Positions 498 to 64,000 are shown, numbered from the stretch's first letter. The stretch: 64,000 nucleotides of DNA from an uncultured Gemmatimonadaceae bacterium (GCA_963829055.1 CAWHHI010000020.1:512001-576000); one strand, 5' to 3'. Numbers and translations are program-made. Notes: a model not told the origin generated them from the sequence alone.

Positions 498-2073
498 TCA
501 CGGCTTCCACAAGGGAGGTGGAAAATTCCCGTAGCCCGTCGTCCACGAAAGCGGTATCTCCAGCCCCGTGCTCACGTTGAGCAACGTAACCGTTGTCCCC
601 GCCCACCCATCGCGCGGCTCGAAGGCCGCGAAGATCCACTGCCCATCGGGCGACCACTTCACACCGGGAACGTACTTGCGCCCCGGCGGCGAGAGGGCAC
701 GCGCGCCGGTGCCGTCAGACCGAATCGTCCAGATCTGGTTATTGGCCGCCGTGTAGGCGATCAGCTCCCCACTCGGCGCCCACTGCGGGCGCTGGCCACC
801 GGGCGCGATCTCTCGCACTGACCTGTTCGCGATCGTCAGTATCCGCACCGAATAGCCGGTCCGGTTCCCTGTCTGGTTCTCGAACGCGATTCGCGTTCCG
901 TCCGGCGAAATCGATGGCCATTTATTCACGAGCTCGAAGCACTCGTTGCCACCCGGAGGACTGAGCCGGTCGATGACCTGCGGACTCGTTAGGTGCAGCC
1001 GATAGATGATCTGGCTGAAATTGCAGTTACCGGCTGACATGTAGACCCACTGTCCGTCCGGCGAAGCCGTGAACCCCCCGTCCATTACCGCGGGCACGGC
1101 GATGCCACCCGCGCCCGTTCCGGACGTCGATGCGAGCAGCTGCATGGACCCGTTCAGCGAGACGCGATAGAGCGCGCTTCGCAGTGCTGAAGGTGCCGAG
1201 CAGGGCGAGAAACGACTGACCATCCGGCTGCCACTCGAGACCGAAATCGCTGGCTTCGAGATCGTGCGGGATCCCGACGAACGCGCTACCGTCGAGCGGT
1301 CCCGTCACGAACTTCGCGTTCCGCCGCACCAGGATGGTCGCGGCGGGAACGACGCTGACCCACGTCGTGTCGGGAGCGACCGAGCTTCGATCGAGTCGAC
1401 CAACGACGGCGGCACGAGCCGGCACACTCGTACCCACCTGGCCGCTGGCCGAAACCGTTATCCCCTGACCCACCAGCGCATAGGTCACGACCTCGGGGCG
1501 TAAGTTGAAGTACCGATCCTCCACGCGTCCACCGAGCGCGAACGTGCGCCCAACCTGGACGGTTGTATCCTCGACTGGCAGGGTCACGATCGCCGGCTGG
1601 CCGGGGAGCACCGTGTAGCGCACCGTGTCCACGAGACCCGCCTGCGGCACGGAGATCTCGACGCCCGCTGCACCAGCAAGATCACCCATGGTGATTCGTG
1701 CGGCGGCCGCGCCTTGAGCGGACGTCGTCTCGGCGAGGAATGTCTTGTCGACCTGGTTGCTCAAGTCGCCGACGAGCACGGTTTGCGTCCGGGGACCTAC
1801 CGGTTCGCCCAGCGGCACTGACGAAAAGCGCACGATGGCACCCGCGAGAACGTCTCCCGCCTGATCGCGCACGACCACGCGGAGCGGCTGCGGCAGGACG
1901 GCGTCGATCGTGTCGGTGACATTCGCGCCGGCGATGACATTGATCCCAGGTTCCCTGCCGTCAGGCCCGGTGGATTCAGCGCAGCTAGCCGTCACGACAG
2001 CGAACAACGCGAGGAGCGAGACGCGAGCGCAGCGGGCGGCACACGAAGAGGGCGAGATCATTCGGCGCATCAT
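498..2073 (-). CDS. Lipoprotein with Ig-like domains and TolB-like (PD40) beta-propeller; frameshift near 1175
   Basis: Signal peptide ending VVTASC; SPDG/WSPDG repeats; split over ORFs 1027..2547 and 498..1223. Start could be 2061, 2070 or 2073. Confidence 0.7.
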
Positions 2074-2337
2074 AAACGCCGGCACACCACGTCGCCATAT
2101 CCGGCTCGGCGTTAGGCACCGAGGCGTCGATTGCCTCCGTGGCGTGACCCGCGAGGTGAAGACGGAACACCGGCTCGCCGATGAGCCAGTAGCGAAAGCC
2201 CCCACCCCACAGTTAGCCGAACGTCGTATTGCTGCGCGTCCCGGTTCGCGGTCACGATTAGCCGTGATATCAGCGAAGACCGGCCGACGCGACGCGGGGT
2301 AATCGGCGAGTCTCCACACGAAAACCGAGCAGACCAG

Positions 2338-5236
2338 ATGGCAACCACGAGCTCTGCATTGGGTTTGCGGTTCGTTCGTGCGAGCCCGTGGCTGTGCCTT
2401 GGTGGCGCGACGCTTGGCGCCGTCGGGTTGTTCGGCTGGGTAAGCGGCGTGCCTGGTCTCACGACGATCGTGCCCGGCCTGCCGCCCATGATGCCGAAAA
2501 CGGCACTCGCACTCATGCTGATCGGCGGCGCCGGGGCGGCGCGCCAACCATCCGACAGCCGACCGCTGCGGAACGCGCTGTCGCTCCTGGCCACCCTCGT
2601 CGTGCTCGCGTTAGGCGCGTCGCAGCTGGCCGAGTATGCACTGGGGATCGATCTGCCGATCGATCGAGCCCTCGCACGCATTGACCTGACATTGTTCCTT
2701 GGGCGGTCGTCGCCGCCGACGACACTGGCTCTGACCTGCCTCTCCGCCGCGCTCCTCCTGTCGAACCTCGGCGCGACGGCCCGTGTGACCCTCTCGCAGT
2801 GGCTCATCCTCGGTGCTGCGCTCGTCGCGTTCACGGGCCTCACCGGAATCATCCTCGAAGCGGCGCCGCTCTACCGATTGGCGCGGACGCCCGTCATCGG
2901 CCTGAGCCTTCCTTCGGCGGTCAGCCTGCTCCTGACGTCGATGGGGCTGCTGCTCGCACGTCCCACCGATGGAGTCATGCGCGTGGCTGTCTCGCCAGGC
3001 CCCGGTGGCGTTCTGCTCAGACGCCTGGTACTGCCAGCCATCGTCGCACCGGTGCTGATCGCCTTCGTCGTCACACGAGTTTTCGCCGCTCGCGGCACCG
3101 TCGGGGTTTCTACCCCCGTGGCGATCCTCGCGGCGACGATGGCCGCGGTGAGTCTTGTTCTGCTCGTCGTCATTTCGGGGCCTCTCGACCTCGCGCATCA
3201 GGACGCGGAGGTGAGCCGCACGCACACCCGGAACCTCGTCGAGCAGGCACCCGATGGCATCTTCGTGGCCAATATCGACGGACGCTACACCGACGTGAAC
3301 GACGCGGGCTGCCGCATGCTCCAGTACTCCCGCGAGGAGCTCATCGGGAAGACGATCGTCGACCTGATCCCTCCGGAAGATGTCGGGCGGCTGTGGCAAT
3401 CGAGGGAGCGGCTTCTCGAGGGCACCGTGCAGGTTGACGAGTGGACGCTTCGGCGCAAGGACGGCACCTTCATCCCGGTGGAGGTGAGCGCGAGGATTCT
3501 CCCGGACGGGCGGTGGCAGGGGTTCGTTCGTGACATCGGCGAGCGCAAGCGGCTCGAGGATGCGCTTCGCCTCTCCGAGGCGATATCAACCGGGATCCTC
3601 TCGATCTCCGCTGACGCGATCATCTCCGTGGACGCGGATCAGCGCATCACGCAGTTCAACGAGGGCGCGGAGAAGATCTACGGCTACACGAAGGCGGAGG
3701 TGATCGGCGCCCCGCTCGACATGCTCGTTCCGGCGCGGTCTCGCGGCGCCCACCATCGACACGTGGCGCGCTTCGCGACGACACCAGGAATCGCCCGGAC
3801 GATGGGGGTGCGCGAAGGCATCGTCGGGCTCCGCAAGAATGGCGAGGAGTTCCCCGCTGACGTAGCGATCTCGAATCTGGAGGTCGGTGGGTCGCGCGTT
3901 CTGACGGCCATCGTTCGCGATGCCACGGAGCAGAGGCGAACGGAGAACGAGCAGCGATTCCTGGCCGAGGTCGGTCCGGTGCTGGCAACGACACTGGACT
4001 ACGAGGAGACGCTCTCACGTATCGCCGAAATGGCCACGCGGGGACTCGCCGACTTCTGCATCGTCGATCTCGTCGATGACAAGGGCGAGGTCCGGCGGGC
4101 GAGGGTCGTCAGCCGGGATCCCGCGAAGGTCTGGCTATGCGAAGCCCTGCAACGGCTTCCGCTCGGTCCGGGGCGGCCGCCCCTCGTCAGGTCCGTGCTC
4201 GAATCCGGGCAGCCGTTCCTCCTGCCGCGCCTAACGACGGAGGAGGTCGAACGGCTCGCTGCGACGGACGACCATCGTCGGTTAGTGATCGCGGCAGAGC
4301 TGGAGTCCGTCATGGTCATCCCCCTCATCGCGGCTGGAAGACGCCTGGGCGCAATGTCCTTTCTGTCCGCGACCCCATCCCACCTGTACGGGCCGGACGA
4401 CTTGCGCATGGCGCACGAGCTCGCGCAGCGAGCAGCACTCGCCGTCGACAGCGCCCGCCTCTATCGCGCCGCGCAACGGGCGATCCAGATGAGGGACGAC
4501 GTACTCGGCATCGTGGCTCACGATCTCCGAACTCCACTCTCGCTGATCCTTCTCGAAGCCCAACTCATTGAACTGAGCTCGCACGGCGCCGAGCGCCGGT
4601 CGCGGGAACGCTGCCGAGGCGATCGATCGGGCGGCGACCCGCATGAATCGCCTCATCCAGGACCTCCTGGACGTGACCAGCATCGAAGCCGGCCAGCTGA
4701 CCATCGAACACAACCGCCTGGCCAGTGCACAGGTTGTGTCCGACACGGTGAAAGCCCACCGCGCGTTGACGTCCGCTGTAGCCATCGAGTTTCGGCTGGC
4801 CACGTCGCCGGAGGTTCCTGAGATCTGGGCGGATCGTGACCGGATCCTCCAGGTGTTCGACAACCTCATCGGGAATGCCGTCAAGTTCACCGCACCAGGT
4901 GGGTCCATCACTATTGGAGCGGCCCCTCGAGATGCCGGCGTGCTCTTTTGGGTTGGCGACACGGGGCCCGGGATCGCGATCGAGGACCAGGCGCACCTGT
5001 TCGATCGGTTCTGGCGCGCGCAGCACACAAAACGCGCCGGTGCGGGTTTGGGACTCGCTATCGTCAAGGGCATCGTCGAGGCCCACGGCGGTCGTGTCTG
5101 GGTCGAGAGCGCGCCAGCGCGAGGGAGCACGTTCTACTTCACGATCCCGGCAGCGCCGCCGATGGAGCTGACAACGGGGACAACGGGCGATCCGCCCGCG
5201 AGTCGCATCGGCGGTGTCCCGCAAGCGTCTGCGTGA
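2338..5236 (+). CDS. Membrane-bound PAS-PAS-GAF sensor histidine kinase; frameshift near 4609
   Basis: N-terminal TM helices, two PAS repeats, GAF, H-box AHDLRTPL; HATPase boxes (NLIGNAVKF, DTGPG, GAGLGL) in ORF 4643..5236. Confidence 0.85.
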
Positions 5237-5988: not shown

Positions 5989-7492
5989 ATGGTGACACAT
6001 GCGGCGAGAAACGGTGGAGCGCAGCGCCGAGTCCTGATGTCCATTCTCGCCTTTGCTTGCACCGGCGTGGCGACCGCACTGCTCGCCGGCTCGCTCGCCG
6101 CGCGCGGCGTGAACGCGGTTCTCGTCGCGCCGCCGGAGATCGACACGGCCGCCGTCGGGCGGTTCGTCAGCGCTTATTGCGCGCGCACCGGGCTGCCCGG
6201 AGCCGTCGTCGCGATCACCAGGGGCAATCGCGCGATCTATCTCGGTGGCCAGGGGACGAGCTCCGACGGCTCGCCGCTCGATGCGGACTCCCGGCTTCCG
6301 ATCGCTTCGCTCAGCAAGTCCTTCACCGCGCTGGCGATCATGCAGCTCGTCGAGAGGGGAACGCTCGACCTCGACCAGCCAGTACGCCGCTTCCTCCCCG
6401 AGTTCGTCGTGGCCGATGCGCGCGGTGACCGGATCACCGTCCGTCAACTCCTCGACCACACGTCGGGGATGGCGGACACCGAGTTCCCGGAGAAGAGCAT
6501 CCCGACGCCGGTATCGTTGCGAGACGCCGTCGCGCGTCTGCGCACGGCCCGCCTGGCCAGCGATCCAGGGACGTCCTTCCACTACCACAACCCGAACTAC
6601 TGGGTGGCCGCGCGACTGATCGAGGTGGTCAGCGGCGAATCATTCCCCGACTATCTGCAGCGGCACGTGTTCGATCCCGCAGGGATGCACGCCAGCACCA
6701 CGGCCGGCAGCCTCCCTTCCGTCGCGGACGTGGCGCACGGTCACATCCGGTTCTATGGCGCGTCGCTCGCGCTTCCCGAACCGCCATGGTACCTCGAGGG
6801 TGCCAGCGGCGTGGTGACGACCGCGCGCGATCTCGCGCGCTGGCTGATCGTCCAGAGCACCGGGGGCGTGTCGGCCGACGGTGTTCGGCTGATCTCGGCG
6901 GCAGAGCGTCGACGCGATGCACCGCAAGGACCTTGGCTGGAGTCTCGACCAACGGACGGGTGCAGCGCACCACGCGGGATGGCTGTTCACGTTCACCGCC
7001 AGGCAGGTCGTGCTGCCTAACGGCTATGCGATCGCGGTGGCGACGAACCGTGGCGTGAGCGTGGGCCCGGACGACAGCGAGGAGATCATGCGCGGGCTGA
7101 TCGCCATGACGCGCGGCGAGACACCCACCGTGGGCGCGCCAGTCGGCCGGATCATTGACCTCGTGCTGCTCCTGCTCACGCTCGGCGTCGGCGCGGCGGG
7201 TATCCGGAGCGTTCGACGCTCACGCACCTGGGCGGAGCGCTGGCACCGCCACGCCACGGTTTCGGCGGTACTTGGACTCGCCGCGTGGATCGCTCCGATC
7301 GTGACGCTCGCCAGTCTGCGCCGGATCGTCATGTATGTCTTCGGCGGCAGGGACGGCACGTGGACGCAGCTCGCGTACGTCGCGCCCTCGCTGGTGGTGA
7401 TGCTCGCCGTCGCGACGGCGTTCGGGGTGGTGATCGTCATCCTGCGGATCGTTCTCGTGACGCGGGACGGGACCCTCGGTCCGGGGTCCTAG
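5989..7492 (+). CDS. Serine hydrolase (beta-lactamase/PBP-like family) with C-terminal TM helices; frameshift near 6905
   Basis: SxxK (ASLSKS), LLDHTSG, YHN; continues in ORF 6917..7492 (HAG motif then TM segments). Confidence 0.8.
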
Positions 7493-7751
7493 CACGATCG
7501 GTCGGCGCGCACTGACCCCCTTCGGTCCCGCAGAGGGACGATAGGGTGGCGCTCTGGACCGCCACTGCGGGTGCGCTGCTCTTCGCGGCGTTAGGCGCGG
7601 GCTCCGCGGCCGGCCAACAAGGACAACAGGAGTGCTTTACTTCCGCCGGCGACGTGGGCCGGACCCGCTCGTTGCTCCGGTGCTCCCTCGAGCGTCGCTA
7701 CTGAGTATTGCTCAGCGCTCGCGAACCACCTCCCAACGCCGGAAGGGCCGA

Positions 7752-8012: not shown

Positions 8013-9442
8013 TCAGGGGAACTCGAAGCGAAGCGGTGCACGACCGCTCGGGAGGCGCTCCGGAATGAGCCGCCGCAGGTACTGCGGGCGAGCCGCCGGG
8101 TCGAGGAGGCCTCCGCTAACAAAGTCCACCAGCGCCTCGAGCTCGGCGTCCGAGAGTGCGACCGGCACCCGCAGCCGAGGGTCGAGCCGGGCCAGCGCGG
8201 GGGCCGTCGGCCCAAGCGGCCCGCGCAGGTCCGCCGCAAGGAGATCCGGCGTATACGAGCTCGCCTGCCCTATGGGGTCCAGGTGGTACCGGATCGCGTC
8301 CTTCAGCCTGACGAACGCGCCGTTGTGCATGAACGCCGGCTGCAGCGCCACGTTCCGGAGCGGCGACGTGCGGAACGCGTACCGATCGGCCGGGTCTCCC
8401 GTCACCTGCTCGAGCCCGAAGTCCTCGTTCAGGCCCGGCCCGTCGAAGGTCACGTTCCCGACCGCCGGCGCCACCTGCGGCACCGCGGTGACGTGCTCGC
8501 GGAAGTCGCTGAACATCTCGTTGGACTGGCCCGACACGGCGTGACACTGGACACATCCGGCCCGGCCGAAGAAGAGCACGGCGCCACGCTTTTGTCCCTC
8601 ACTGAGCGCATTGCGATCGCCGCGCGCGTAGCGATCGATCGGCGCGTCGGTGGTGACGAGCGTGAACTCGAACTCGGCGATCGCACGGCCGACGTGATCG
8701 AACGTGATTGGCGCGCCGGCCTTGACCTGCGGGAACGCTCGCGAGAAGAGGTCGCGGTAGTTCCGGTTGGCGTTCAGCCGGCGCAGCACCTCGTTTCGGA
8801 TGTCGTCGTTGTTCCCCGGGAACGTCGAACCCCGCAACCTCCACGCGCTCGGTGGGTGGGATGAACGCCTGCGCCGCGAGCAGGTGCGGCTGGTACGACA
8901 GCGTTAGGCCCTCGGGCTGCGGGAACTGAGAATCCGGCACGGTTGTCGAACGGGTTACCGGAGCGCGCGCGGAAGCGCGAGTTCCACATCAGCGTCGGGT
9001 AGAACGCCGTGTTGATCACCATCGGCGAGCGTCGCTGATTGCGCGGGCCGGTTCGCCCCGGACCCACGATCCCGTTGTTGTCGATCCCAATAGCGATCGA
9101 CTGCGTGTCACCGAAGCCGTTCGTGGGCGAGTGACAGCCTCCACACGTGTTGTCGTCGTTCAACCCGCCGATCGGGTCGAACCACAGCATGCGCCCGACC
9201 TCGGCGACCTGCTGATCGACGCGGCGACCGAGGCGCGCCTCGAGCGTGCTCGCCATACGGCCAGTGAAGCCGAGTGTGTTCAGGTACGTCTGCAGGTCAG
9301 CGTCCAATCCAGGTGCGCCCGCTACGGAGGCCGCCGGTGCCGGCACGGCAGTGATGCCATCCACCTCCGCGCGCTCGGTGCACGCGCCGATGGCAGGAAG
9401 CATTGTCGTGACTGCGAGGACCATCCACACATTCGCTTTCAT
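8013..9442 (-). CDS. Di-heme cytochrome c peroxidase / MauG family lipoprotein; frameshift near 8929
   Basis: Two CxxCH motifs (CGGCH, CVQCH), RRSPMVIN, WNSR, FRTSPLRNV, FMHNG; signal ending IGAC. Confidence 0.85.
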
Positions 9443-9555
9443 GGCCGACGCCGGGTCGTGGTGGGGCGATCGTCGATTCGGCGATCGCGGTCAAGCGTTA
9501 GGTGAGCGGCAAGCGGCCGCGGTGCGGCGCCTCACTGCACCGCGGCCGACTTGTC

Positions 9556-10077
9556 TCAGATGGGATCGCAGAAGATGTCCAGGCCCCGGACGACGGGATT
9601 GTCGACGGGCTCGAAGGCGGGGTACGTGAATTTGCCGCGGAGGTATACCCTGACGTCCGGCGTTTTCCCCTGTCCGAGGAGATTGAAGTGATCGACGATG
9701 TCGACTACGGTCGGGGGCGTGGTCGGGCTGACTGGGTCGACCCAGATTTGGGTGCCGGCGTAGTCGAACACATACGTGGACCCGTCCGTTCCGCTCGCCG
9801 TTCCATGCGCGCTCAGGTTGAGCACGACTTTCAATTCGCCCGTCGGGGACTGCGACACGCGGGTCACCGCGTGGAGGACGCCGGTGCCCGTGACATCCGT
9901 CGGTAGGGCGCACAGGGTGGCGGAGAGCGTGAACTGGACCGGGACCGTCGAGTTGTCCACCACCGCGGGTACGGCCTGTTTCGGCACGTTAGGCGGCGCG
10001 GATGGTGGCGAGACGGGTTCGGCGCAGGCGACGAGCGTAACGGCGCCGAGGGCGAGCAGTGAGGCGCGGAGCAGCAT
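9556..10077 (-). CDS. Hypothetical lipoprotein
   Basis: MLLRASLLALGAVTLVAC lipobox; GGAGG RBS upstream. Confidence 0.7.
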   Translation of the reverse strand: MLLRASLLALGAVTLVACAEPVSPPSAPPNVPKQAVPAVVDNSTVPVQFTLSATLCALPTDVTGTGVLHAVTRVSQSPTGELKVVLNLSAHGTASGTDGSTYVFDYAGTQIWVDPVSPTTPPTVVDIVDHFNLLGQGKTPDVRVYLRGKFTYPAFEPVDNPVVRGLDIFCDPI

Positions 10078-10951: not shown

Positions 10952-13828
10952 GCGAGCGTCCAGGAAGTGCCGAAGGTGGCCCGTCGTCCCTCGGTGCGCT
11001 CAACGACTGGGCGCGGATCGAGCCACTCATCGACGCGGTGCTCGACGCGCCACCGGATCGGCGGGACGTGGTCGCCCGGGAACTGAGCGGCGGCGACGAC
11101 GCCGTGTACGCCCGGCTGCAGGGTCTGGCCGCCGATTGTGCGAAAGACCACCGCCTTCTGGACCGACCGGCGGCCGAGCGCTTCGCGTCATTGTTCGATC
11201 CGGACCCGTTCCCCATTCCGGAGACGCACCTGACCGACCGCCTCTCGGCCGCAGTTGCGGACCGCTACCGGATCGAGCGCGAGCTCGGCTCGGGCGGTAT
11301 GGCGACCGTCTACCTGGCGCAGGATCTCAAGCACGACCGCAAGGTCGCGCTCAAGGTCTTGAAACCCGAGCTGGCCGCCGTGTTAGGCGCCGAGCGGTTC
11401 GTGGTCGAGATCAAGACGACCGCGGCGCTGCAGCACCCGCAGATCCTGCCGCTCTTCGATAGTGGCACCGCCGACGGATTTCTCTATTACGTCATGCCGT
11501 TCATCGACGGCGAGACGCTGCGCGCGAAGCTCGATCGGGAGAAGCAGCTGAGCGTCGGCGAGGCCGTGAAGATCACCACCGAGGTTGCCAACGCCCTGGA
11601 TTACGCCCACCGCCACGGCGTGGTCCACCGCGACATCAAGCCGGAGAACATCCTGCTCCACGAGGGCCGGCCGGTGGTGGCCGACTTCGGCATCGCGCTG
11701 GCCGTGAGCGCGGCAGCGGGCGGCAGGATGACGGAGCCGGGCCTGTCGTTAGGCACGCCGCACTACATGAGCCCCGAGCAGGCGACGGCGGAGCAAGGAG
11801 ATCACCGCGCGCTCCGACATCTACTCGCTCGCGAGCGTGCTCTACGAGATGCTCACCGGCGAGCCACCCCACCACGGCGGATCGGCGCAGCAGATCATCA
11901 TGAAGATCGTCACCGAGGAAGCGCAGCCGCTGACCCGGCGGCGCAAGTCGGTGCCGACGAATGTCGAGGCCGCGGTGGCACAGGCACTCGAAAAGCTTCC
12001 CGCCGACCGGTTCGAGACCGCAGCGAAGTTCGCGGAAGCGCTGAGAGATCCACATTTCACGACGCGTACCGACTCAGCCACGTGCCGTTAGGCAGGGCGC
12101 AGCACGCACGCCGCCCGTCGCGCGGTGGCTCGTTGGACTTGGACTCCTCGCGGCAGGGCGCCGTTGGCTGGGTGCTCCACCCACGCGGGGCCAGCCTGCC
12201 AGCCCCGGTGACGCACCTCACGATTCCGGTCCCGGGCGGCCTCGATGGAGAGGGCATCTTCCCGATGCTCGCCGTCTCGCCAGATGGCCGCTCCGTTGTC
12301 TACTTCCAGGGTGGCACCCTGTACAGGCAACGATTGGAGCGCGATGCACCCGAATCGCTCGCCACCTTCGCGATGGGCTGCTGCCCGCAGTTCGCGGAGG
12401 GCGGACGGTCGGTGCTGGTCGGTAACGCCACTCGCTTCGGGGGTGAATTGCGAATGGTGGCACTCTCCGGCGGACCGATCGTGAATGTCGCATCTCGACC
12501 GCTCGGAGAGGACATCATCAGCTCGGAATGGTTGCGCCCAGGCGTCTTCCGCCGCCACGCCGGCGACACCGCGTGGAAGCTCATCACGAAGCCGGACTCC
12601 GGAGGCGCGGTGGCCGCGTACATGTGGCCGCAGCTCCTCGAAGGTGGCCAGTCCGTGCTCTACACGATCATGGGGCCGAGCGGGATGTGGCACGACTCCA
12701 GGATCGTGCTCGAGGACCTAACGAGCGGCGAGCGCACGACCGTCGCGAGCGAGGGCACGTATGGCCGATACGTTCCGACGGGTCACGTGGTCTACATCCG
12801 CGACGATGGCACGGTGGAGGCGGTCCCATTCGACCTCCGTCGGCGGCGCGTGACCGGACGTGCATTCACGGTCGTCGAAGGCGTTCAGACCGGGTATTGG
12901 GGAGGCGCCGGCTCGTTCGCCATCTCCGACTCCGGGACATTCGCGTACGTCCGCGGATCGAACTGGCAACTGCATCAGCTGACGTGGGTCGACCGGCAGG
13001 GGAAGGTGGTGGGCCATGTCGGCGAACCGATCACCGCGGAGGGCGTGAGACTCTCACCCGACGAACGCTACGTCGTGACGTACGTGGCGTCGCCCAACGC
13101 GGATATCGCGCGGTTCGATGTCGCGACGGGCGAGCAACGCCGCCTGACGTTCGATCCGAAGACCGAGGACATTCCAGTGTGGTCCCGCGACGGGCGGCGC
13201 GTGGCGTACCGGCTCATCATGGGGGCGAACGACAACCGTATCGTGATGCGGGCGGCTGACGGACAGGGCGCGGTCGAGCACGTTGTATGCCCCACACCAT
13301 GGCGGGACGGTCCTTCCGCTCGACTTTACCCCGGACGACTCGGCGCTCGCACTCGAGGACGATGGATTGCTCATACTCCACCTCGCGAGCCAGCGCGTGG
13401 ACACGGTGAGCCGGAGCCGGAAGAGACAGGCTCAGTTCTCTCCCGATGGGCGTTGGCTGGCGTACACGGCGGAGGATACCGGACGGGAAGAAGTGTACGT
13501 CATCGCCTATCCGGCCCTCACCGGCAAGCAGCAGATCTCGACGACGGGCGGCCGGACTCCGGTGTGGTCGGCGCGAAGCGGAGAGCTGTTCTTTCTGAAG
13601 AACGACACCGTGATGGCGACGTCGGTGTCCACGCAGCCCAGCCTGGAGTGGACGACGCCACGAGCGCTGTTCGCACGACCAGATCTGGCGGCACTCGATT
13701 ATGGGTTCTCCGTATCGGCCGACGGGCGTCGGTTTCTGTACCCCGCCCGAAACCCCGACGCAGCGCCTCGGGAGATACACGTCGTCCTGAACTGGTTCGA
13801 GGAGCTGAAGGCCAGGGGCGCTCCGTGA
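10948..13828 (+). CDS. Hanks-type Ser/Thr kinase + TM + TolB-like (PD40) propeller; frameshifts near 11796, 12075-12160 and 13290
   Basis: GSGGMATVY, VALK, HRDIKPEN, DFG, YMSPEQ; SPDG repeats; ends VVLNWFEELK. Confidence 0.85.
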
Positions 13829-35415: not shown

Positions 35416-36975
<1,560 letters not shown>

Positions 36976-37026
36976 TGTAACGCGTCCCCGCTCGTTTGCA
37001 GTTCAGACCTAACGATTGGCAACCAC

Positions 37027-39356: not shown

Positions 39357-39359
39357 CGG

Positions 39360-55055: not shown

Positions 55056-56221
55056 GTCACGCGCTTCGAGCACGACCCATCGAGCTCGTTGCGCGGACGC
55101 CAGACGAGTCGGTCGACTTCGAGTCGCTCGACTTCGAACTTTCCGACGCGCTGCTGGCGCACGAGCCGCCGGAAGCGCGTGGACTCTCGCGGGACCAAGT
55201 GCGCCTGCTCGTGACCGATCCGACCAATGATAGCGTTAGGCACGCCGTGGCCCGCGACCTGCCGACCTACCTCGACGCCGGCGATCTGCTCGTCGCCAAC
55301 TCCAGCGCGACGATCAATGCGGCACTCGATGCGTGGCGCCCAGCCACAGGTGGCGCATCTGACGAGTTGATCGCGCTGCATCTGTCGTCGCCGGTGCCGG
55401 GTGCGGCGACTGATGATCGCTGGGTCGTCGAGCTACGCCGGTTGACGCCCGACGGTACTCGGCCGCTGCTCGACGCGCGTGCTGGCGAGCGGATCGGACT
55501 CCGCGGCGGCGCATTCGCGACGCTGATCGCTCCGTTCAGGCGTGGTGCCGCGGGCGGCCCGCCTAACGACCAAACCCGCCTCTGGGAAGCCGAGCTCTCT
55601 TACCCGGGCGGTGCACTGGCGTACGCCTGGGAGTTCGGGTCGCCCATCCGCTACGGCTATGTGCACGACCGCTGGCCACTCGCCACGTACCAGACGGTAT
55701 TCGCCGATGAACCGGGAAGCGCCGAGATGCCTTCTGCCGGCCGACCGTTCACGCCGGAGCTGGTCGAACGGATCCGATCGCGCGGCGTGGCGATCGCATT
55801 GCTGACGCTTCACACAGGCGTGGCGAGCCTCGAGTCAGGCGAGTCGCCGTATCCCGAGCGCTACCGCGTTCCGCGCGAGACCGCGATCGCGGTGAATCGC
55901 GCCCGTGCCGCTGGCGGCCGCGTCGTCGCCATCGGGACGACGGTCGTGCGCGCGCTCGAGACGGTCGCGGACATCGACGGGACCGTGAGCGCCGGTGAGG
56001 GGTGGACGGATCTCGTGATCACGCCGGAGCGTGGCGTACGAGCGGTGGACGCCCTGCTCACCGGGTTCCACGAGCCGCGTGCATCACACCTCGCGATGCT
56101 GGAAGCCATCGCGGGGCGACGGCATCTCGCCGCCGCGTACGGCGCCGCGATCCGAGAGCGGTATCTCTGGCACGAGTTCGGCGATGTCCACCTGATCATG
56201 CGCCGATCGGGAGCGGGGTGA
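55052..56221 (+). CDS. QueA-like protein (divergent SAM:tRNA ribosyltransferase-isomerase paralog)
   Basis: YQTVFA, GSAEMPSAGRPF, LHTGV, AIGTTVVRALE, TGFHEP, YLWHEFGD. Confidence 0.85.
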   Translation: MSHALRARPIELVARTPDESVDFESLDFELSDALLAHEPPEARGLSRDQVRLLVTDPTNDSVRHAVARDLPTYLDAGDLLVANSSATINAALDAWRPATGGASDELIALHLSSPVPGAATDDRWVVELRRLTPDGTRPLLDARAGERIGLRGGAFATLIAPFRRGAAGGPPNDQTRLWEAELSYPGGALAYAWEFGSPIRYGYVHDRWPLATYQTVFADEPGSAEMPSAGRPFTPELVERIRSRGVAIALLTLHTGVASLESGESPYPERYRVPRETAIAVNRARAAGGRVVAIGTTVVRALETVADIDGTVSAGEGWTDLVITPERGVRAVDALLTGFHEPRASHLAMLEAIAGRRHLAAAYGAAIRERYLWHEFGDVHLIMRRSGAG

Positions 56222-56266: not shown

Positions 56267-58003
56267 ATGCGCCGACTCCATTCGCTATCGCCTCTCATCG
56301 CCAGCGCGCTCATCGCGTGCACTCGTGCCGTGCCGGGCACGTCCACGCCGGTCGCCGCTGGCGAGCTGCCACGAACGCACGTCGCCAGGCCGACGACGGG
56401 CGCGATAGACCCGGCCGATCTCATGACGCGCTTGTACGTGCTCGCCGACGACTCGATGCTCGGGCGCGAAGCGGCGACGCTGGGCAACGTGAAGGCGACG
56501 GACTACATCGCGCGCGAGATGCAGCGCATTGGACTCGCGCCCGGCGGCGAGAACGGGACGTACTTCCAGACGGTGCCGGTGCTGATCGCGCGAATAGACA
56601 CGACGCGCACGATCTCCGTCGAGGGAACGCGACTCGCGCTCGGCAGCGACGTGCTGCCGTTCTCGGCCAACACGGCGGCGACCATGCTGCCACGTGGTGC
56701 GACGATCCGCTCGGTGGACGGCGCGCAGGTCGTCTACGGCGGGCTGCTCGGCAGCGGCACGCTCATCGCCCCCGAGCAAGCGGCGGGCAAGGTGGTCGTG
56801 TTCACGGTCGCGCCCGATTCGACCGGACGGCGCGACTACCGCTTCTACCTGAAAGGGCCGCTCACGCAGTACGGCGACGCCGCCGGCATCGCGGCTGTCG
56901 TGCTGGACGTCGTGCCGCCTAACGTGCTCAATCGCTTTCGCGGCGCGGCGATGCGCATCCATCGCGACGATCCGACAGGAACGGCGCCGACCATCATGCT
57001 GGTGACACCCGCGGCCGCGCAGCGGATGCTCGGTGTCGCGCAACTCGACCGAATTAGCGTCGGGACTGTCGGGAAGACGCTGAGTGGGACGGTCGCGATC
57101 ACAGAGGCGCCCACGCTGTATCCGGCTCGCAACGTGATCGGTGTCCTGGCCGGCTCCGACCCCGCGCTGCGCGGCCAGTACGTCGCCGTCGGTGCGCACA
57201 ACGATCACATCGGCCTAACGAATCGTCCGCTCGACCACGACTCGGTGGAGGCGACGAATCGCGTCATCCGCCGGCAGGGAGGTCAGGACCCGGTGCGCGC
57301 GGCGACGCCGGAAGAATCGGCTCGCATCACCCAGCTCCGCGACAGCCTGCGTCAGGCGCACGGCGGCGTGCGGATGGATTCCGTGAACAACGGCGCCGAC
57401 GATGACGGCTCGGGCACGGTCGCGATGCTCGAGATCGCGGAGCGGTTCGCCACGGCGCCGCATCCGAGGCGGTCGCTGATCTTCGTCTCGCACACGGGCG
57501 AGGAGAAGGGGCTCTGGGGGTCTGACTGGTTCACGGACCACTCGACCGTTCCACGCGACTCGATCGTCGCCCAGTTGAACATGGACATGGTGGGGCGCGG
57601 GAAGGCGACGGACGCGATGGGTCGCGGCCCGAACAACATCCAGATGATCGGCTCGCGCCGCCTGTCCACGCAGCTCGGCGATCTCATCGACTCGTTGAAC
57701 ACGGCGCGCACGCCGCACATGGACCCGGACTACTCGTTCGACACGCCGGGCCATCCGCTCAATCGGTACTGCCGCAGCGACCACTATATGTATGCGCGCT
57801 ACGGCATCCCGATCACCTACTTCTCGCTCGGCTACCACACGGGATATCACCAGGTCGTGGATGAGCCGCAGTACATCGACTACGACCACATGGCCCGGAT
57901 CGCCAGCTTCGTGCACGACATTGCCGAGGCGGTGGCGAACCGACCGCAGCGTCTGATCGTGGACAAGCCAAAGCCGGATCCAAAGGCGGGTTGTCGGCAA
58001 TGA
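56267..58003 (+). CDS. M28 family peptidase lipoprotein
   Basis: Lipobox LIAC; GAHNDH, NGADDDGSG, GEEKGLWGS, NMDMVG, RSDH, YH. Confidence 0.92.
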   Translation: MRRLHSLSPLIASALIACTRAVPGTSTPVAAGELPRTHVARPTTGAIDPADLMTRLYVLADDSMLGREAATLGNVKATDYIAREMQRIGLAPGGENGTYFQTVPVLIARIDTTRTISVEGTRLALGSDVLPFSANTAATMLPRGATIRSVDGAQVVYGGLLGSGTLIAPEQAAGKVVVFTVAPDSTGRRDYRFYLKGPLTQYGDAAGIAAVVLDVVPPNVLNRFRGAAMRIHRDDPTGTAPTIMLVTPAAAQRMLGVAQLDRISVGTVGKTLSGTVAITEAPTLYPARNVIGVLAGSDPALRGQYVAVGAHNDHIGLTNRPLDHDSVEATNRVIRRQGGQDPVRAATPEESARITQLRDSLRQAHGGVRMDSVNNGADDDGSGTVAMLEIAERFATAPHPRRSLIFVSHTGEEKGLWGSDWFTDHSTVPRDSIVAQLNMDMVGRGKATDAMGRGPNNIQMIGSRRLSTQLGDLIDSLNTARTPHMDPDYSFDTPGHPLNRYCRSDHYMYARYGIPITYFSLGYHTGYHQVVDEPQYIDYDHMARIASFVHDIAEAVANRPQRLIVDKPKPDPKAGCRQ

Positions 58004-58189: not shown

Positions 58190-61075
58190 ATGCTTTCGCC
58201 GTTCCGTCGCACAGTCGTCGCGCCTGCGCTGGTCGCTCTCGTCGCCAGCACCGCATTGCAGCAGTCCTCGCTCCCGCGCACGCCAAACGAAGTGGTACGC
58301 GCCGCCGAGCGAGCCGTGACCGCGCGCCGGGCCGCCGTCGTGCGACAGGAGTGGCTCGGACGACTCCGACGTGAGCCCGCCAATCGGCTCGCCAGGCTTG
58401 GCGTCGCGGCATTCGCGCGACTGGCGTACGACTATGCGGCCGCCGACTCGTTCGCCGCTCCACTGCTCGCTCGTAGTGGCGATCGGCCCGACGGCATCGC
58501 GGCGTGGGCGCGCATCGAAACCGCCCTGGCACTTGCGCAGCAATGGCGGCTCGGAGAAACCGATTCGCTACTCACGATCGCCGCGAGCGAAGGAGCCGCG
58601 GCCGGCGACGGGACAGCCGAGGGCGTCGCCCTCGCACGCCTCGCGCTGCTGCGTGGTCGCACGCAGGGCGTGGACGCCGGGCTCGCCCTGCTCGATCGCG
58701 CAGTCCGCGCTCTCCCACCGGCCGATTCCGTCGACCGCGCGCTCGCTCTCGCCTATCGCGCGCAGCTCGTGCTGGCGCGCGGGACGCCCGGTGCCGGGCC
58801 GCTCGCCGACTCCGCGCTCCGACTCGCGCGACGTACCGGCGCCGCACGCATCGAAGGATTGGCCTACAACATCCTCGGCCGCGAACAGCTCCGCGTAAGG
58901 CGCGCCGACTCCGCCGAGGTGCTGTTCAGTCGCGCAGTCGAGCGGTTGCGCGCCGCGGGCGATCTCGCCGGCTACGCAGGGTCGCTCCAGTGGCGCGGCT
59001 ATCTGCTTCGCTCGCGCGGCGAGCTCGGGGCGGCCGAGCGCGACCTCCGCGCGGGTCTCGCCGTCGGACGCATTGCGGGGCAAGTGGTGCTCGGGTGGAC
59101 GGAGATGAACCTCGGGCAGGTCGCGATGTCGCTCAACGACTGGGGCGAAGCGCGACGTCACCTCACGTCGTCGCAGGCGCTGCTCGATTCCGCGCGTGAT
59201 CGCTGGGGCGGGGCCACTGCGACGCAGCTCGAGGCGTCGGTTCGCTGGGCCGTGCGCGATTGGGCAGGCGCCGACTCCCTGCTCCGCGCCGCCGAGCAGC
59301 AGCTCGCGCAGTCGGGCAACACGTCGCAGATCCTGGACACGCGCGTGCAGCGACTCCGCTATGCGCTCGCGCGTCGCGACTGGCCGCATGCGGCGGAGAT
59401 GCTCGCGCTCGCGCGCGACTCGACGATCCGGGGACGCTCCGCCGAGTACGTCGACCTCGACTACTACGACGCACTGCTCGCGCTCGGCACCGGACGGCCT
59501 AACGATGCTCGCCGCGCGCTCGATCGATCGCAGCGCGAGAGTGCGCGCAGCGGAGAAGCCCCGACCTACCTGCAGCTCGCCCGCGCCGCGGAAGCCGAGG
59601 CGCTCCTCGGGCGTCTCGATACCGCAGAAGCGAAGTTAGGCGAGGCGATGAAGGTCTTCGAGCGGTACCGCGCGTCGCAGGCGACTCGGGAGCAACGACT
59701 CGCCGCTCTCGGCGTCGCCGGCGACGCCGATGATCCCAGCGTTGGCGTCGCCACGGTCGTCGCGTCGCTCGCGCGCGCGGGCCGCACGGCCGCAGCCTTC
59801 AACTTCGCCGAGCGAACGAAGGCGCGTGAGCTGCTCGATGGGATGACGCGTCGAGAGGCGCTGCGCGATCCGGGCAACGATCGCCCAGAGACGCGTGAGG
59901 CGGCGCTCGCGAACGTGTACGCGCGGCCCGTGACGCTCGCCGAATTGCAGTCCGCTCTGCCGGAATCGACGGCGGTCGTGCACTTCAACACTGGAACGTG
60001 GAACGAGCCGACGACCGCATTCGTGCTCACGCGCGAGGGCACGTCGGCATACGTGCTCCCGCCCGCGGATTCGCTCGTCGATCCTGTTCGCCGACTCGTC
60101 CTCGCCATGCAGGCGAAGAGCGACATTCGCATCCAGGCCCGAAATCTGGGCAATGCGATCGCCGCGCCGATTGCCGCCGCGATGCCAGCCGCCATCACGC
60201 GCCTCGTCATCGTTCCAGGGGCGCCGCTGAACACATTGCCGTTCGACGTGCTCACGCTGCCGGATGGCCGCATGATGATCCAGCGGTTCGAGCTGTCGTA
60301 CGCGCCGAGTGCGTCGGTGTACGCCGCGCTGCGGCGTCGCGCAATCGACGGCGCGGGCGACCACACGAATGCGACGACGGTTGGAGGGCCCGGGGTGCTC
60401 GCGTTCGGTGCGCCGGAGCGGTCGCGAAAGTCCGGCGTGGCGCGATGGGACACGCTTCCGCCACTGCCCGCGGCCGCAGCCGAAGCGCGCGACGTCGCCC
60501 GGTCCGCACCGCGATCACTCGTTAGGCTCGGCCGCGATGCGAGCGAGGCGGCGCTCAAGCAGGCGGCGCTCTCCGACGTCGCCGTGCTGCACTTCGCGTC
60601 GCATGCCGTGGTCGACCCGGCCGGACTGCGAGGGACGGCACTGCTGCTCGCGTCAGGCGGAGGCGAGGATGGCGTCGTGCGGCCCGAGGAGCTGAGCGCC
60701 CTCGCGCTCGACACGGATCTCGTCGTGCTCTCAGCGTGTTCGACGGCGTTGAGCGGCGGTCACGCGGGTGACGAGGGCCTTCGCGGGTTGGTCGCGCCGA
60801 TGATCGAGGCCGGCGCGCGGGGCGTGGCCGCGACGCTCTGGGCGGTGGACGACGAGGCCCAACGGCTGCTCGTCCGTCGCTTCTATCAGCGACTGTCGCG
60901 AGGAGAAACCTCTGCCGCGGCGCTGCGGGGGGCGAAGCTCGAGGCCATTCGCGACGGCGCGATCCCGCGTGACTGGGCGGCCATGGTGCTGTGGGGCGAT
61001 CCACTCACCCGGCCGCTCGGCGGAGCCCGCCAGCTGGGCGGTAACGTTCGCCCGAGCTCGAGCCGCCGACCCTGA
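58190..61075 (+). CDS. TPR + CHAT (caspase-like) domain protein with a signal-like N-terminus
   Basis: AERTKARELLD, LPFDVL, YAPSAS, LHFASHA (His), LSACST (Cys), TLWAVDD. Confidence 0.88.
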   Translation: MLSPFRRTVVAPALVALVASTALQQSSLPRTPNEVVRAAERAVTARRAAVVRQEWLGRLRREPANRLARLGVAAFARLAYDYAAADSFAAPLLARSGDRPDGIAAWARIETALALAQQWRLGETDSLLTIAASEGAAAGDGTAEGVALARLALLRGRTQGVDAGLALLDRAVRALPPADSVDRALALAYRAQLVLARGTPGAGPLADSALRLARRTGAARIEGLAYNILGREQLRVRRADSAEVLFSRAVERLRAAGDLAGYAGSLQWRGYLLRSRGELGAAERDLRAGLAVGRIAGQVVLGWTEMNLGQVAMSLNDWGEARRHLTSSQALLDSARDRWGGATATQLEASVRWAVRDWAGADSLLRAAEQQLAQSGNTSQILDTRVQRLRYALARRDWPHAAEMLALARDSTIRGRSAEYVDLDYYDALLALGTGRPNDARRALDRSQRESARSGEAPTYLQLARAAEAEALLGRLDTAEAKLGEAMKVFERYRASQATREQRLAALGVAGDADDPSVGVATVVASLARAGRTAAAFNFAERTKARELLDGMTRREALRDPGNDRPETREAALANVYARPVTLAELQSALPESTAVVHFNTGTWNEPTTAFVLTREGTSAYVLPPADSLVDPVRRLVLAMQAKSDIRIQARNLGNAIAAPIAAAMPAAITRLVIVPGAPLNTLPFDVLTLPDGRMMIQRFELSYAPSASVYAALRRRAIDGAGDHTNATTVGGPGVLAFGAPERSRKSGVARWDTLPPLPAAAAEARDVARSAPRSLVRLGRDASEAALKQAALSDVAVLHFASHAVVDPAGLRGTALLLASGGGEDGVVRPEELSALALDTDLVVLSACSTALSGGHAGDEGLRGLVAPMIEAGARGVAATLWAVDDEAQRLLVRRFYQRLSRGETSAAALRGAKLEAIRDGAIPRDWAAMVLWGDPLTRPLGGARQLGGNVRPSSSRRP

Positions 61076-62420: not shown

Positions 62421-62477
62421 TCCACATCGCCTGAGTTTGCCGCTCGGCAGCAAACTTGCGCACGCTGCTCGCCGCAA

Positions 62478-64000
62478 TGACCACTCGGCCTCGCATCGCC
62501 ACCAACGCCATGCGCGCGTTCATCCTGCTCTTTGGCGCGGGGGCCCTCTGGCTCGCCCGCGATGGGATGAACGCCGACGGCATCGCGTACCTGGACGCCA
62601 GCGACGTCTATCTCGCGGGCGGATGGCCCGCGTCGGGCAGCGGGTACTGGAGCCCACTCTATCCGACGCTCCTCGCGATTGCACGATTCGTAGGAGGCAC
62701 AGCGCCCGATCGCGAGCTCGCAATCACGCAGGCCGTGAACTTCGCGGTCTTCATTCTCGCGTTTGCGGCCCTCGAGTTTCTGATCCGCAGCGTCCGAGCC
62801 GCGACGCTGGCGCGGCAGCCCGCGGGCGAGCCACCTAACGATTTCACCTGGCGCGTCCTCGTCTACGCGCTGTTCGTCATCGCGACCATCGGCTGGATCC
62901 GCGTGTGGATCCTGACGCCGGACATGTGTGTCGCCGCGATCGTCTTCGCGGTGGCCGGTGTGAGCGTCCGCATCGCGAGCGGACGCGCCGGCCGGGCAAG
63001 CTCCATCGGCCTCGGCGCGCTCCTCGCGCTGGGCTACCTGGCCAAGGCGGTGCTCTTTCCGTTCGGCATTTTCGTGGTCGCGACGCTCGCGATCATGCTT
63101 CGCCGGAAACGGCAGCTCGGCCGAGTCGCCATCGCGGCGCTCGTGTTCCTCGTCGGCTCGGCGCCGCAGATCGTATACGCGTCGCGTCTCAAGGGTGCGC
63201 CCACGTTCAGCGACGTTGGACGACTCACGTACCTCTGGTTCGTCGCCGATGTGCCCGGCCCGGTGTCGTCGGCCTTTCCCCTGCCCGCCCGACTGCCGTC
63301 ACCGTCAGCGACGCACCAGACCCTCGCGCGGCTGGACCGGACCAGCGGAGTTCATCCCGCCGTGTACGACATCGACGCCCCCATCCCCGGCACGCTACCG
63401 ATCTGGTACGACGCGGGCCACTGGTACCGCGGCGTAGTCGCGCCGTTGCTCCCCATCGCGGTGATCCGGAGCGCTCGTTAGGCACGCGCGGGTGTACCTG
63501 GAGATGTTCGGGCTGCTGGTCGCCGGCGCGCTGGCGGCGGCGTTCACCCGCCGCGTGACCTGGCGCGAGACAATCGCCATGAGGCCTCTCCTCATCCTCG
63601 TCATTCCCGCAGTCGCGGTCCTCGCCGCGTATGCGCTCATGTTGGTGCAGGACCGCTACGTCGCCCCATTCGCGCTGCTCCTGTTCGCCGGTCTCGTACC
63701 GCCGTGGGCAACGGATGACCTCTCGCGCCGCGTGCGGGTCGGCCTGGCGACGGGCGCGCTCGTCGCCGTCGCACTCGTCCTCCACCAGGCCCGCGTCGAT
63801 GCCACTTACTGGCGCGGTTCGGCACGCTCACGCGCGAACGTCGTCGCCGCACTCGAGGCCCGAGGCATCCGACCGGGTTCGCGCGTCGGCTTCATCGGCG
63901 AGGCGTACGACGCGCTCTGGGCGCGCCAGGCACGCCTGCGATTCGTGTCACTCGTCCCGCTCGCGGAGGCCGAGCGGTTCTGGGAGCTGGATGCGGCGGG
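62478..64000 (+). CDS. Polytopic membrane protein (GT-C/ArnT-like); frameshift near 63470; runs off the window
   Basis: DGIAYLD, YWSPLYP, TPD, LGYLAKA; frame continues VRHARVYLEMFG... after the indel. Confidence 0.6.

Follow-up and report, generated by a model that had tools for sequence, protein, structure and literature searches.

A hyper-abundant, non-palindromic octamer of Gemmatimonadaceae genomes with the spelling of an integron attC box, and its possible role as a self tag

The word in the window and in its source genome

The DNA studied here is a stretch of 64,000 nucleotides (C20:512001-576000; hereafter, the window) from the genome of an uncultured Gemmatimonadaceae bacterium, G000 (7.78 Mb in 20 contigs, 66.7% GC; its completeness of 86% limits negative statements about its gene content). 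Genomes are labelled G000 to G162, contigs C and viral contigs L. The element in question is a short word iterated throughout the window, the octamer CGTTAGGC, with its heptamer CGTTAGG and its core GTTAGG; the octamer is non-palindromic, its reverse complement reading GCCTAACG. The original prediction, made from the window alone, had put the copies at about 31 CGTTAGG and about 30 CCTAACG, about 46 of them full octamers. We counted 62 heptamers, 31 on each strand, and 47 octamers, and every coordinate quoted earlier for individual copies was correct. Dinucleotide shuffles of the window gave a heptamer mean of 3.16 (3.2 +/- 1.7) and a maximum of 8, none of 100 shuffles reaching 62, and an octamer mean of 1.07.

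Open reading frames (ORFs) were called with a home-made codon-likelihood caller, which returned 6460 ORFs covering 72% of the genome, 5029 of them confident. This coding fraction is low because large genes are split over several frames, among them the AddAB-like pair (C15:9000-16100), chorismate synthase and many other loci, a pattern that suggests frameshift errors in the assembly; a position outside the ORF calls is therefore not equivalent to an intergenic one. The copies in the window, with the codons and residues that they specify where they lie in a called gene, are as follows:

987..993, +, heptamer only, outside ORF calls
2110..2117, +, octamer CGTTAGGC, outside ORF calls
2609..2616, +, octamer, sense GCG TTA GGC (ALG), PAS/GAF protein ORF 2338-4821
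4229..4236, -, octamer, antisense CGC CTA ACG (RLT)
7015..7022, -, octamer, antisense CTG CCT AAC G (LPN)
7589..7596, +, octamer, outside ORF calls
8902..8909, +, octamer, outside ORF calls
9496..9502, +, heptamer only
9987..9994, +, octamer, antisense CCG CCT AAC G (PPN)
11747..11754, +, octamer, sense TCG TTA GGC (SLG), Ser/Thr kinase ORF
12086..12093, +, octamer, sense CCG TTA GGC (PLG)
12717..12723, -, heptamer only, antisense CTA ACG (LT)
13861..13868, +, octamer, its TAG (13864-13866) the stop of ORF 10948-13866
15615..15622, -, octamer, sense GCG TTA GGC (ALG), kinase ORF 14172-16457
15873..15880, -, octamer, sense GCG TTA GGC (ALG)
18278..18285, -, octamer, antisense CGC CTA ACG (RLT)
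19865..19872, -, octamer, antisense CGC CTA ACG (RLT)
20141..20148, -, octamer, sense GCG TTA GGC (ALG), glutamine synthetase ORF
21556..21562, -, heptamer only
22015..22021, +, heptamer only
23006..23013, -, octamer
24408..24415, -, octamer
25825..25832, +, octamer, antisense GCG CCT AAC G (APN)
26090..26097, +, octamer
26354..26361, +, octamer, sense CCG TTA GGC (PLG)
27032..27039, -, octamer, sense CCG TTA GGC (PLG)
27241..27248, +, octamer, antisense GCG CCT AAC G (APN)
28027..28034, -, octamer, sense AGC GTT AGG C (SVR)
30957..30964, +, octamer, sense ACG TTA GGC (TLG), also in G001 and G005, absent in G003
31066..31073, -, octamer, antisense AGG CCT AAC G (RPN), G001/G005 orthologues KPT or KPH
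31440..31446, -, heptamer, its TAA (31442-31444) the stop of ORF 30470-31444
31591..31598, -, octamer
33213..33220, +, octamer, antisense GGC CTA ACG (GLT), absent in G001 and G004 orthologues
34049..34056, +, octamer, antisense CTG CCT AAC G (LPN), common to all 4 aligned genomes
34650..34656, +, heptamer only
35788..35795, -, octamer, sense CCG TTA GGC (PLG), G6PD, relatives show CTC, TTG and TTA steps
36531..36538, +, octamer, antisense CCG CCT AAC G (PPN), G6PD, common to all 6 genomes
37008..37014, -, heptamer only
37651..37657, +, heptamer only, antisense CCT AAC G (PN), full octamer in G001, G002 and G005
40446..40452, +, heptamer only, antisense
41539..41546, -, octamer, antisense CAG CCT AAC G (QPN)
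42415..42422, -, octamer, antisense AGG CCT AAC G (RPN)
44362..44368, +, heptamer only
45776..45783, +, octamer, upstream of the GSIII gene
45931..45937, -, heptamer only, antisense, in GSIII
47732..47739, +, octamer, sense ACG TTA GGC (TLG), GSIII, 5 relatives TLA, TVG, TIG or TMA
48123..48129, +, heptamer only
50060..50067, -, octamer, antisense GGC CTA ACG (GLT)
50349..50356, +, octamer, sense GAC GTT AGG C (DVR)
50854..50861, -, octamer, antisense GGC CTA ACG (GLT)
52416..52423, -, octamer, sense ACG TTA GGC (TLG), MacB-like permease
53151..53158, -, octamer, sense GCG TTA GGC (ALG)
53437..53443, -, heptamer in the variant CGTTAGGT, sense GCG TTA GGT
53673..53680, +, octamer, antisense CGC CTA ACG (RLT)
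55234..55241, +, octamer, sense AGC GTT AGG C (SVR), QueA
55561..55568, -, octamer, antisense CCG CCT AAC G (PPN)
56917..56924, -, octamer, antisense CCG CCT AAC G (PPN)
57213..57220, -, octamer, antisense GGC CTA ACG (GLT)
59497..59504, -, octamer, antisense CGG CCT AAC G (RPN)
60520..60527, +, octamer, sense CTC GTT AGG C (LVR), CHAT protein
62834..62840, -, heptamer only, antisense
63476..63483, +, octamer, its TAG (63479-63481) the stop of ORF 62456-63481

Genome-wide, G000 holds 5004 copies of CGTTAGGC (2547 forward, 2457 reverse), about one per 1.5 kb in genes and spacers, together with totals of 6391 CGTTAGG and 7103 GTTAGG cores. The octamer is the top 8-mer of the genome by z-score under Markov models of orders 1 to 3, which expect 102 to 258 copies; the expectation set against the 5004 is 102-131, and the excess over chance is about 40-fold. 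The over-representation first estimated from the window extends to the whole genome. The motif logo has an invariant GTTAGG core, preceded by C in 90% and T in 7% of cases and followed by C in 79%, T in 12% and G in 7%, with almost no information further out: the core is strict, and its flanks prefer pyrimidines. The only one-off variants that are enriched are TGTTAGGC (435 copies), CGTTAGGT (827), CGTTAGGG (428) and CGTTATGC (583), while variants at core positions 2, 6 and 7 are scarce (9 to 58 copies), the exception being G6>T, which gives CGTTATGC. In agreement with the original prediction, which knew of no description of the word, neither the word nor any uptake sequence of this phylum was described in the literature searched (most subscription journals lay outside the search).

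Codon choice, site evolution and spacing

The 5029 confident ORFs contain 2922 octamers, compared to 127.8 +/- 8.9 after within-gene shuffling of synonymous codons (maximum 150 in 20 shuffles). The original prediction had named a ratio near 1 under a codon-aware null as an outcome that would count against it; the observed-to-expected ratio is about 23, under a null that retains a codon usage inflated by the word itself. The two octamer frames that give an in-frame TAG or TAA are empty in these ORFs, and the four remaining frames are all occupied: xCG TTA GGC (1197), xxG CCT AAC Gxx (804), xGC CTA ACG (537) and xxC GTT AGG Cxx (384). Of the TTA codons read in frame, 48% lie inside the octamer, as do 17% of the CTA codons, and the word is found at 23% of the encodable [SPTA]-L-G sites, 46% of x-P-N-[VADEG], 20% of [CRSG]-L-T and 10% of x-V-R-[LPHQR]. 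A transcribed-strand bias was considered and rejected, as sense copies make up just 54% (1581 sense, 1341 antisense). Octamer density is 0.58 per kb in confident ORFs and, in short spacers, 1.25 per kb between convergent, 0.92 between tandem and 0.50 between divergent genes. The word also supplies stop codons: among 3102 high-confidence ORFs, 139 of 397 TAA stops fall in CCTAAC and 110 of 857 TAG stops in GTTAGG, and three window genes terminate inside the word.

One conceivable explanation of the word is a replication or structural site, whereby it would supply rare YTA trinucleotides (TTA on one strand, CTA on the other) required by every replicon of a GC-rich cell, an idea that draws on the trinucleotide preference of primases, or would nucleate a nucleoid protein at regular intervals. 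The 48% share of in-frame TTA, the even spacing at kb scale, the use of both strands and the presence of the word in phages (see below) would all fit. However, word-poor sister genera of similar GC manage without the word, essential machinery should not be so patchy, and a site of this kind has no link to the integron R box discussed below; we regard it as highly improbable.

How copies arise could be followed by aligning 11 window genes codon by codon with orthologues from up to five other genomes of the genus (DNA identity, 74-86%). At least one relative could be aligned at 17 of the 19 distinct octamer sites; two sites are common to every aligned genome and most are lineage-specific. Relatives show intermediate spellings, as with CTC, TTG and TTA at G6PD codon 394, and gains accompanied by residue changes: ALH to ALG, KPT/KPH to RPN/APN, and TLA/TVG/TIG/TMA to TLG in GSIII, where the reading of the five relatives at 47732..47739 means that the gain came with an amino-acid change. 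The word-creating differences for which the original prediction had looked to orthologues are therefore present, stepwise and often with a change of residue, and these intermediates and replacements indicate that the word was built by ordinary point substitutions under strong directional pressure. That pressure overrides codon choice and also, where a position is tolerant, the choice of residue. Relatives close enough (strain level) to time recent gains or losses were not found, the best metagenome-contig match having 78% protein identity.

Copies are dispersed over all contigs of G000, with near-equal forward and reverse counts in every series of 50-kb bins. Adjacent octamers share an orientation 52% of the time, orientation correlates with GC skew in 50-kb bins at r = 0.14, and the two arms of contig C16, on either side of a clear skew switch, carry 59% and 53% of their copies on the G-rich strand. 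A polarity like that of FtsK-orienting polar sequences (KOPS) or of architecture-imparting sequences, with a strong strand switch at origin and terminus, is ruled out by the near-equal strand counts. The original prediction had held strand balance against KOPS and Chi alike; the former are excluded by the absence of replichore polarity, and an oriented Chi is disfavoured by the mutual exclusion of neighbouring copies described next.

The spacing of the octamers is more even than random, with a gamma shape of 1.24-1.29 versus 0.83-1.06 for 25 control 8-mers, and with 9% of gaps shorter than one fifth of the mean versus 18% expected. Within 200 bp, the pair correlation is 0.25-0.57 for same-strand and 0.09-0.51 for opposite-strand copies, returning to 1 by 300-600 bp, and three control words show no such close-range dip (0.74-1.68). 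For copies on opposite strands no more than 100 bp apart the figure is 0.09-0.43 of expectation, although a few isolated pairs do exist (for example C18:97494-97548). In the window itself, the 70 cores have a minimum spacing of 109 bp (P = 0.00025) and a coefficient of variation (CV) of 0.76 (P = 0.009). From this orientation-blind exclusion zone it follows that the benefit of a copy extends over a few hundred bp, independently of orientation; the unit of benefit is a double-stranded DNA segment of that length. A benefit shared in this way speaks against two kinds of explanation: mutation or repair acting purely locally, and a directional reader of one strand.

The first of these would take the form of methylation with biased repair, in which a methyltransferase together with very-short-patch-like repair converts near-matches in any replicating DNA. 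Such a process would act on phage DNA too, and the cyanobacterial octamer HIP1 proves that an excess of 15- to 300-fold is possible, going by the accessible part of PMC5861425. Local conversion, however, predicts neither a repulsion over 300 bp nor even tiling, and the variants TGTTAGGC and CGTTAGGT are enriched, not depleted. Neither Vsr (PF03852) nor a C5 methylase (PF00145) was found in G000, at its 86% completeness and with N6/N4 methylases outside the search. The methylation or repair origin listed as an option in the original prediction is weakened by the lack of matches to these enzymes and by the mutual repulsion of copies over about 300 bp, and we consider it very unlikely.

The second would be a Chi-like hotspot, where AddAB or RecBCD reads the word on one strand and turns from degradation to repair, and where phages reliant on host recombination accumulate the word. 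An over-represented octamer is what this would entail, G000 has an AddAB-like region with two PD-(D/E)XK domains (C15, 9-16 kb), and the 53-59% on C16 amounts to a slight leading-strand excess. Yet the polarity is far weaker than Chi's, and exclusion acts just as strongly on copies in opposite orientations, which would not be expected of a directional reader of single strands. Chi is in excess about 5-fold in E. coli, and the 40-fold of this word is far above that. RecC is rare in the family survey described below (17 of 151 genomes, 4 of 46 enriched ones) and was not found in G000; the AddB model TIGR02786 has no match there, and the AddAB-like ORFs are fragmented. The phage contig L165, moreover, has an Erf-like recombinase of its own yet carries the word. 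A Chi-like role thus appears quite unlikely.

Distribution, integron sites and viral contigs

Genomes were called enriched when their octamer count was at least twice that of the reversed-word control, in a tally of our own over 151 Gemmatimonadaceae genomes; four unpublished genomes in this survey and four in that of the phylum were all counted as non-enriched. All seven genomes of the genus are enriched (2500-5100 copies each), as are 46 of the 151 in the family, spread over roughly 27 of 77 genera and ranging from about 2-fold up to 1.3 copies per kb, the densest hosts carrying 1.25-1.33 octamers per kb. Most non-enriched family genomes hold fewer octamers than the reversed-word control, and within one genus two species (G062 and G162) have about 4000 copies and a third (G120) has 66. 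In the rest of the phylum, enrichment is limited to 2 of 162 genomes, which belong to a single genus of a sister family. Enrichment is thus not confined to this assembly, a possibility that the original prediction had raised against itself, and its proposal of a DNA signal that spans the genome, is specific to a lineage and resembles uptake sequences or HIP1 is supported by the k-mer counts, the codon null and the family survey.

The word itself does not change between hosts in the samples taken: CGTTAGGC is also the top word in those from the enriched genomes G022, G061 and G010, which belong to other genera. A "dialect" word in a word-poor relative was sought in 200 kb of the complete genome G064 and dropped, no hyper-abundant alternative being present there. 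In G010:C1 1-200000, where the octamer is 14-fold in excess, the one-off word CGTTTGGC is 5-fold over expectation (48 vs 9.4).

Three stretches of 31-48 kb in G000 contain no GTTAGG at all (C6:6854-55038, C6:591809-623330 and C11:7377-44055). All lie at contig ends, the two on C6 at 70-73% GC and that on C11 at 66.4%, and they carry housekeeping genes (aromatic amino-acid synthesis, FtsK, GreA), many of them split. Position, GC and split housekeeping genes led us to reject recent acquisition of mobile DNA; the stretches are probably chimeric joins or DNA mis-binned from a word-poor organism, which suggests that the word is useful as a marker of assembly quality.

The spelling of the word leads to integrons, which have been reported in Gemmatimonadota (available text of PMC8618304). 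The integron consensus, as given in the part of PMC12901181 consulted, is GTTRRRY for the R' box and RYYYAAC for R'', and GTTAGGC fits the former. In word-poor genomes, octamers cluster 3' of the integrase gene intI. The number located there is 9 of 17 in G064 (over 33 kb), 10 of 14 in G096 (over 22 kb), 3 of 28 in G008 and 2 of 19 in G065. Folding of the G064 and G096 clusters revealed cassette arrays of 17-19 attC sites of about 97 nt, which start [GA][CT]CTAAC and end ..TCGTTAG[GA][CT]; both arrays lie on the 3' side of intI, the "inverted integrase" layout. In the sister family (f2), same-strand octamer clusters are likewise arrays, of 90-103-nt attC sites ending ..CCGTTAGGC. Judged by sequence, the octamer and the R' box of this order's attC sites are one and the same, down to the 5' C, and a chance match of an 8-mer to that box is very unlikely. 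The original prediction stands as regards a genome-wide signal but had missed this identity.

The genomic copies are not attC sites themselves. They are solitary, close pairs are depleted, R''-R' pairs at 40-160 bp show no excess in G000 (84 vs 78-93 for other arrangements), and the 57 fold-compatible octamer pairs share no sequence family. Nor are copies arrayed at intI, near which G000 has one attC-like hairpin (C20:205101-205191, 2.9 kb off). The IntI of G000 (C20:208008-208985, minus strand) is divergent, scoring 265.7 bits (just over cut-off) with 45% identity to the IntI of G096, and has retained its tyrosine. A second copy (C4:2862-3170, minus strand, near a contig end) is a truncated N-terminus; an IntI N-terminal-only protein was accordingly dropped as a candidate reader of the word, being this integrase remnant. 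The integron of G000 looks decayed. As for the genus, G001, G003 and G005 have an intact IntI, G000 has the divergent one, G002 and G006 have partial copies, and in G004 none was found.

IntI or a derivative might bind R-box duplexes as dispersed attI/attG-like landing or exchange sites, or the word might serve some other IntI-dependent function. Apart from the exact match to the R' box, 5' C included, IntI is unusually common in the family (TIGR02249 over cut-off in 88 of 151 genomes), and G000 has its divergent IntI, a truncated copy and one hairpin. If the comparison is restricted to assemblies in 20 contigs or fewer, IntI or a remnant of it is present in each of the 9 enriched genomes, and the word is scarce in every one of the 7 genomes that have no full-length IntI (no match in 5, only a fragment in 2), neither pattern being significant. 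Against this, IntI is not associated with enrichment over the family (28 of 46 enriched vs 60 of 105 other genomes), its state varies within a genus, genomic copies lack a partner and close pairs are depleted, and insertion at copies inside genes would be harmful; we also know of no mechanism by which IntI would create copies. On balance, a role for IntI itself seems unlikely. More generally, the co-distributed genes that the original prediction had proposed to look for did not emerge among the candidates surveyed, none of which points to the reader: enrichment showed no link to IntI, RecC or ComEC, and G000 yielded no C5 methylase or Vsr.

The word is also present in phages. When viral contigs were scanned for octamer pairs with a separation of 200-230 bp, L177 (7.8 kb) came up; its products include an SU10-type adaptor, a lysozyme and virion proteins. 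It holds 29 GTTAGG cores on both strands vs 1.9 expected (3.7 per kb), with a mean spacing of 252 bp, a minimum of 95 bp (reached in 0 of 20,000 random placements) and a CV of 0.58 (P = 0.001), and its 12 octamers (1.5 per kb) come near the density of the densest hosts. L347, 99% identical to L177, has 15 cores vs 1.05 expected; 78 related phage contigs (870 kb; structural protein 41-44% identical) have 102 vs 283 expected. GTTAGG is the top hexamer in two further viral contigs, L160 and L165, the latter with an Erf-like recombinase and a spanin. The word has therefore been copied or imposed in viruses as well as hosts. Phage mimicry of a host word has a precedent, given that Chi is over-represented in E. 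coli phages lacking recombinases (PMC3784561, in the portion available).

In L165:7815-10505, eight CCTAAC...GTTAGG pairs, 10-92 nt apart, recur every 200-650 nt and may be a small cassette-like array or word-flanked hairpins carried by the phage. The top hexamers of L174 (51% GC; GTTAGT with GTTAGG) and L195 (CGTTAG with GTTAGC) may be dialects of the word in unsampled hosts. Same-strand octamer clusters in the low-GC viral contigs L152, L194 and L149 proved to be unrelated repeats, not attC sites, and the prophage markers PF05065 and PF03354 had no match in G000.

Phage tiling bears most directly on the main rival to an uptake signal, a tag read inside the cell. A patchy accessory system, for defence or of the nucleoid-protein kind, would spare or organise word-bearing stretches; the host would tile itself and phages would mimic it. 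Consistent with this are the core excess in L177 and L347, with no excess in the 78 related contigs, the even spacing of about 250 bp in L177, the rank of GTTAGG in L160 and L165, and the orientation-blind exclusion and even spacing in the host; one word, patchy and graded across genera, would also suit a horizontally mobile system. However, no candidate system was identified, a newly acquired one would attack its untagged host, and the identity with the integron R' box would go unexplained. We know of no precedent, other than Chi, for a defence that reads the presence of a word. The octamer density of L177 (1.5 per kb, vs 1.25-1.33 in the densest hosts) would also be compatible with passive sharing of a host process. 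In our view a reader inside the cell is a serious alternative, if a doubtful one.

Unrelated to the word, the window contains at 43096-43205 an intergenic palindromic repeat of about 110 bp with arms TGTCATTCCGAGCG...GAGTCGAGGAATC, half-copies of which lie near 32867, 37053 and 58036. Its words GCTCGGAATGAC (about 670 copies) and AGTCGAGGAATC (about 370) recur in G000, and the other genomes of the genus carry the repeat on many of their contigs. It resembles a repetitive extragenic palindromic (REP)- or miniature inverted-repeat transposable element (MITE)-like family independent of the octamer.

A candidate self tag and its relation to known systems

Our preferred explanation, to which we assign a probability of roughly 0.35, is that CGTTAGGC is an orientation-blind self tag that confers a segment-level advantage in transfer, as do the uptake signal sequences (USS) of Pasteurellaceae and the DNA uptake sequences (DUS) of Neisseriaceae, its word having been borrowed from the integron R box. 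A sequence-specific protein, the putative reader, would recognize the word on double-stranded DNA in either orientation, and would do so at DNA uptake rather than on resident DNA. Segments with at least one copy would have a better chance of being passed on or retained, so that a new copy arising by point mutation where a few hundred bp had none would spread, by the molecular-drive logic of uptake sequences in those two families. The word would have been taken from the R' box of the order's attC sites, and the reader would then also favour the import or retention of gene cassettes. Transforming DNA enters the cell single-stranded, the form in which attC sites fold, so that a receptor tuned to the R box would be expected to enrich cassettes. 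Gain and loss of the specificity factor among genera, with decay of the word after loss, would give the graded densities.

Several points weigh against this uptake tag. We infer the borrowing from the integron R box, and the uptake bias toward CGTTAGGC is a predicted one. No receptor was identified, no search aimed at receptors such as a ComP-type minor pilin having been made. ComEC (PF03772) is compatible with uptake but, being near-universal (139 of 151 family genomes, comprising 45 of 46 enriched, G000 included, and 94 of 105 others), does not discriminate enriched genomes. Inverted terminator pairs, a trait of DUS, are depleted rather than enriched in G000, and the exclusion scale of 300 bp is shorter than typical uptake fragments. 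Uptake drive accounts for the tiling of L177 solely if the phage is temperate or gains by transfection, and a reader inside the cell explains that tiling more simply. Finally, the three enriched hosts sampled from other genera (G010, G022 and G061) show no dialects, and uptake sequences are described as drifting within families in the part of PMC3630211 at hand.

Whether read at uptake or inside the cell, the word may be a third, independent kind of bacterial self tag, in which a mobile specificity factor makes the cell favour DNA segments of a few hundred bp that bear the attC R' box; this broader possibility we put forward only tentatively. If it holds, the acquisition of kin DNA is coupled to gene-cassette capture, the host is forced to tile itself and phages are driven to copy the word, which would offer a handle on the recruitment and exchange of cassettes in soil bacteria and on how self and foreign DNA are told apart without modification. 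To our knowledge, a genome-wide self word is understood in two bacterial families only, as uptake sequences, and the function of HIP1 has stayed unsettled for decades. The present word, at about 40 times its chance frequency and with half of all TTA codons inside it, is a very strong case from an abundant and little-studied soil phylum. It is experimentally approachable, since it is the core of the bacteria's own integron sites, obeys a spacing rule on the scale of a few hundred bp whatever the orientation of its copies, and is copied by phages. In practice, it could serve as a marker for binning and chimera detection in metagenome assemblies and as a host-prediction signal for phages.

Among known systems, Chi is also an over-represented octamer and also accumulates in some phages (PMC3784561, as far as its accessible text goes). 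Unlike Chi and KOPS, the word has almost no replication polarity, an orientation-blind exclusion zone, a much larger excess and a host, G000, in which RecC was not found. For HIP1 (GCGATCGC), a link to a methyltransferase and short-patch repair has been proposed, for which no counterpart was found in G000 (PF00145, PF03852). HIP1 is palindromic and its periodicity is 18-94 kb, whereas the present word is not palindromic and has an exclusion zone of 300 bp. The two are alike as hyper-abundant octamers kept by selection and lying in genes, and the size of the effect matches the 15- to 300-fold reported for HIP1 (PMC5861425, same portion).

With the attC/attI core the word shares its exact spelling, that of the R' box including the preceding C. 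Unlike attC sites, genomic copies are solitary, dispersed and mostly in ordinary genes, have no L boxes or hairpin partner, do not lie beside intI, and their number does not track IntI.

The differences from USS and DUS are the depletion of inverted terminator pairs (DUS), the lack of dialects among the three enriched hosts of other genera, a phage lineage saturated with the word, a spelling that is that of the attC R' box, and an uptake bias and receptor that for this word are putative. The likenesses are more extensive: a non-palindromic word on the 8-12-mer scale, about one per kb on both strands in thousands of copies, placed within genes in several reading frames, contrary to codon preference and at an amino-acid cost, with graded position weights and restriction to a lineage. 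Karlin et al. are said to have found in 1996 that USS, too, are spaced more evenly than chance. Taken together, excess, strand symmetry, indifference to frame, graded position weights, even spacing and lineage restriction match uptake sequences best.

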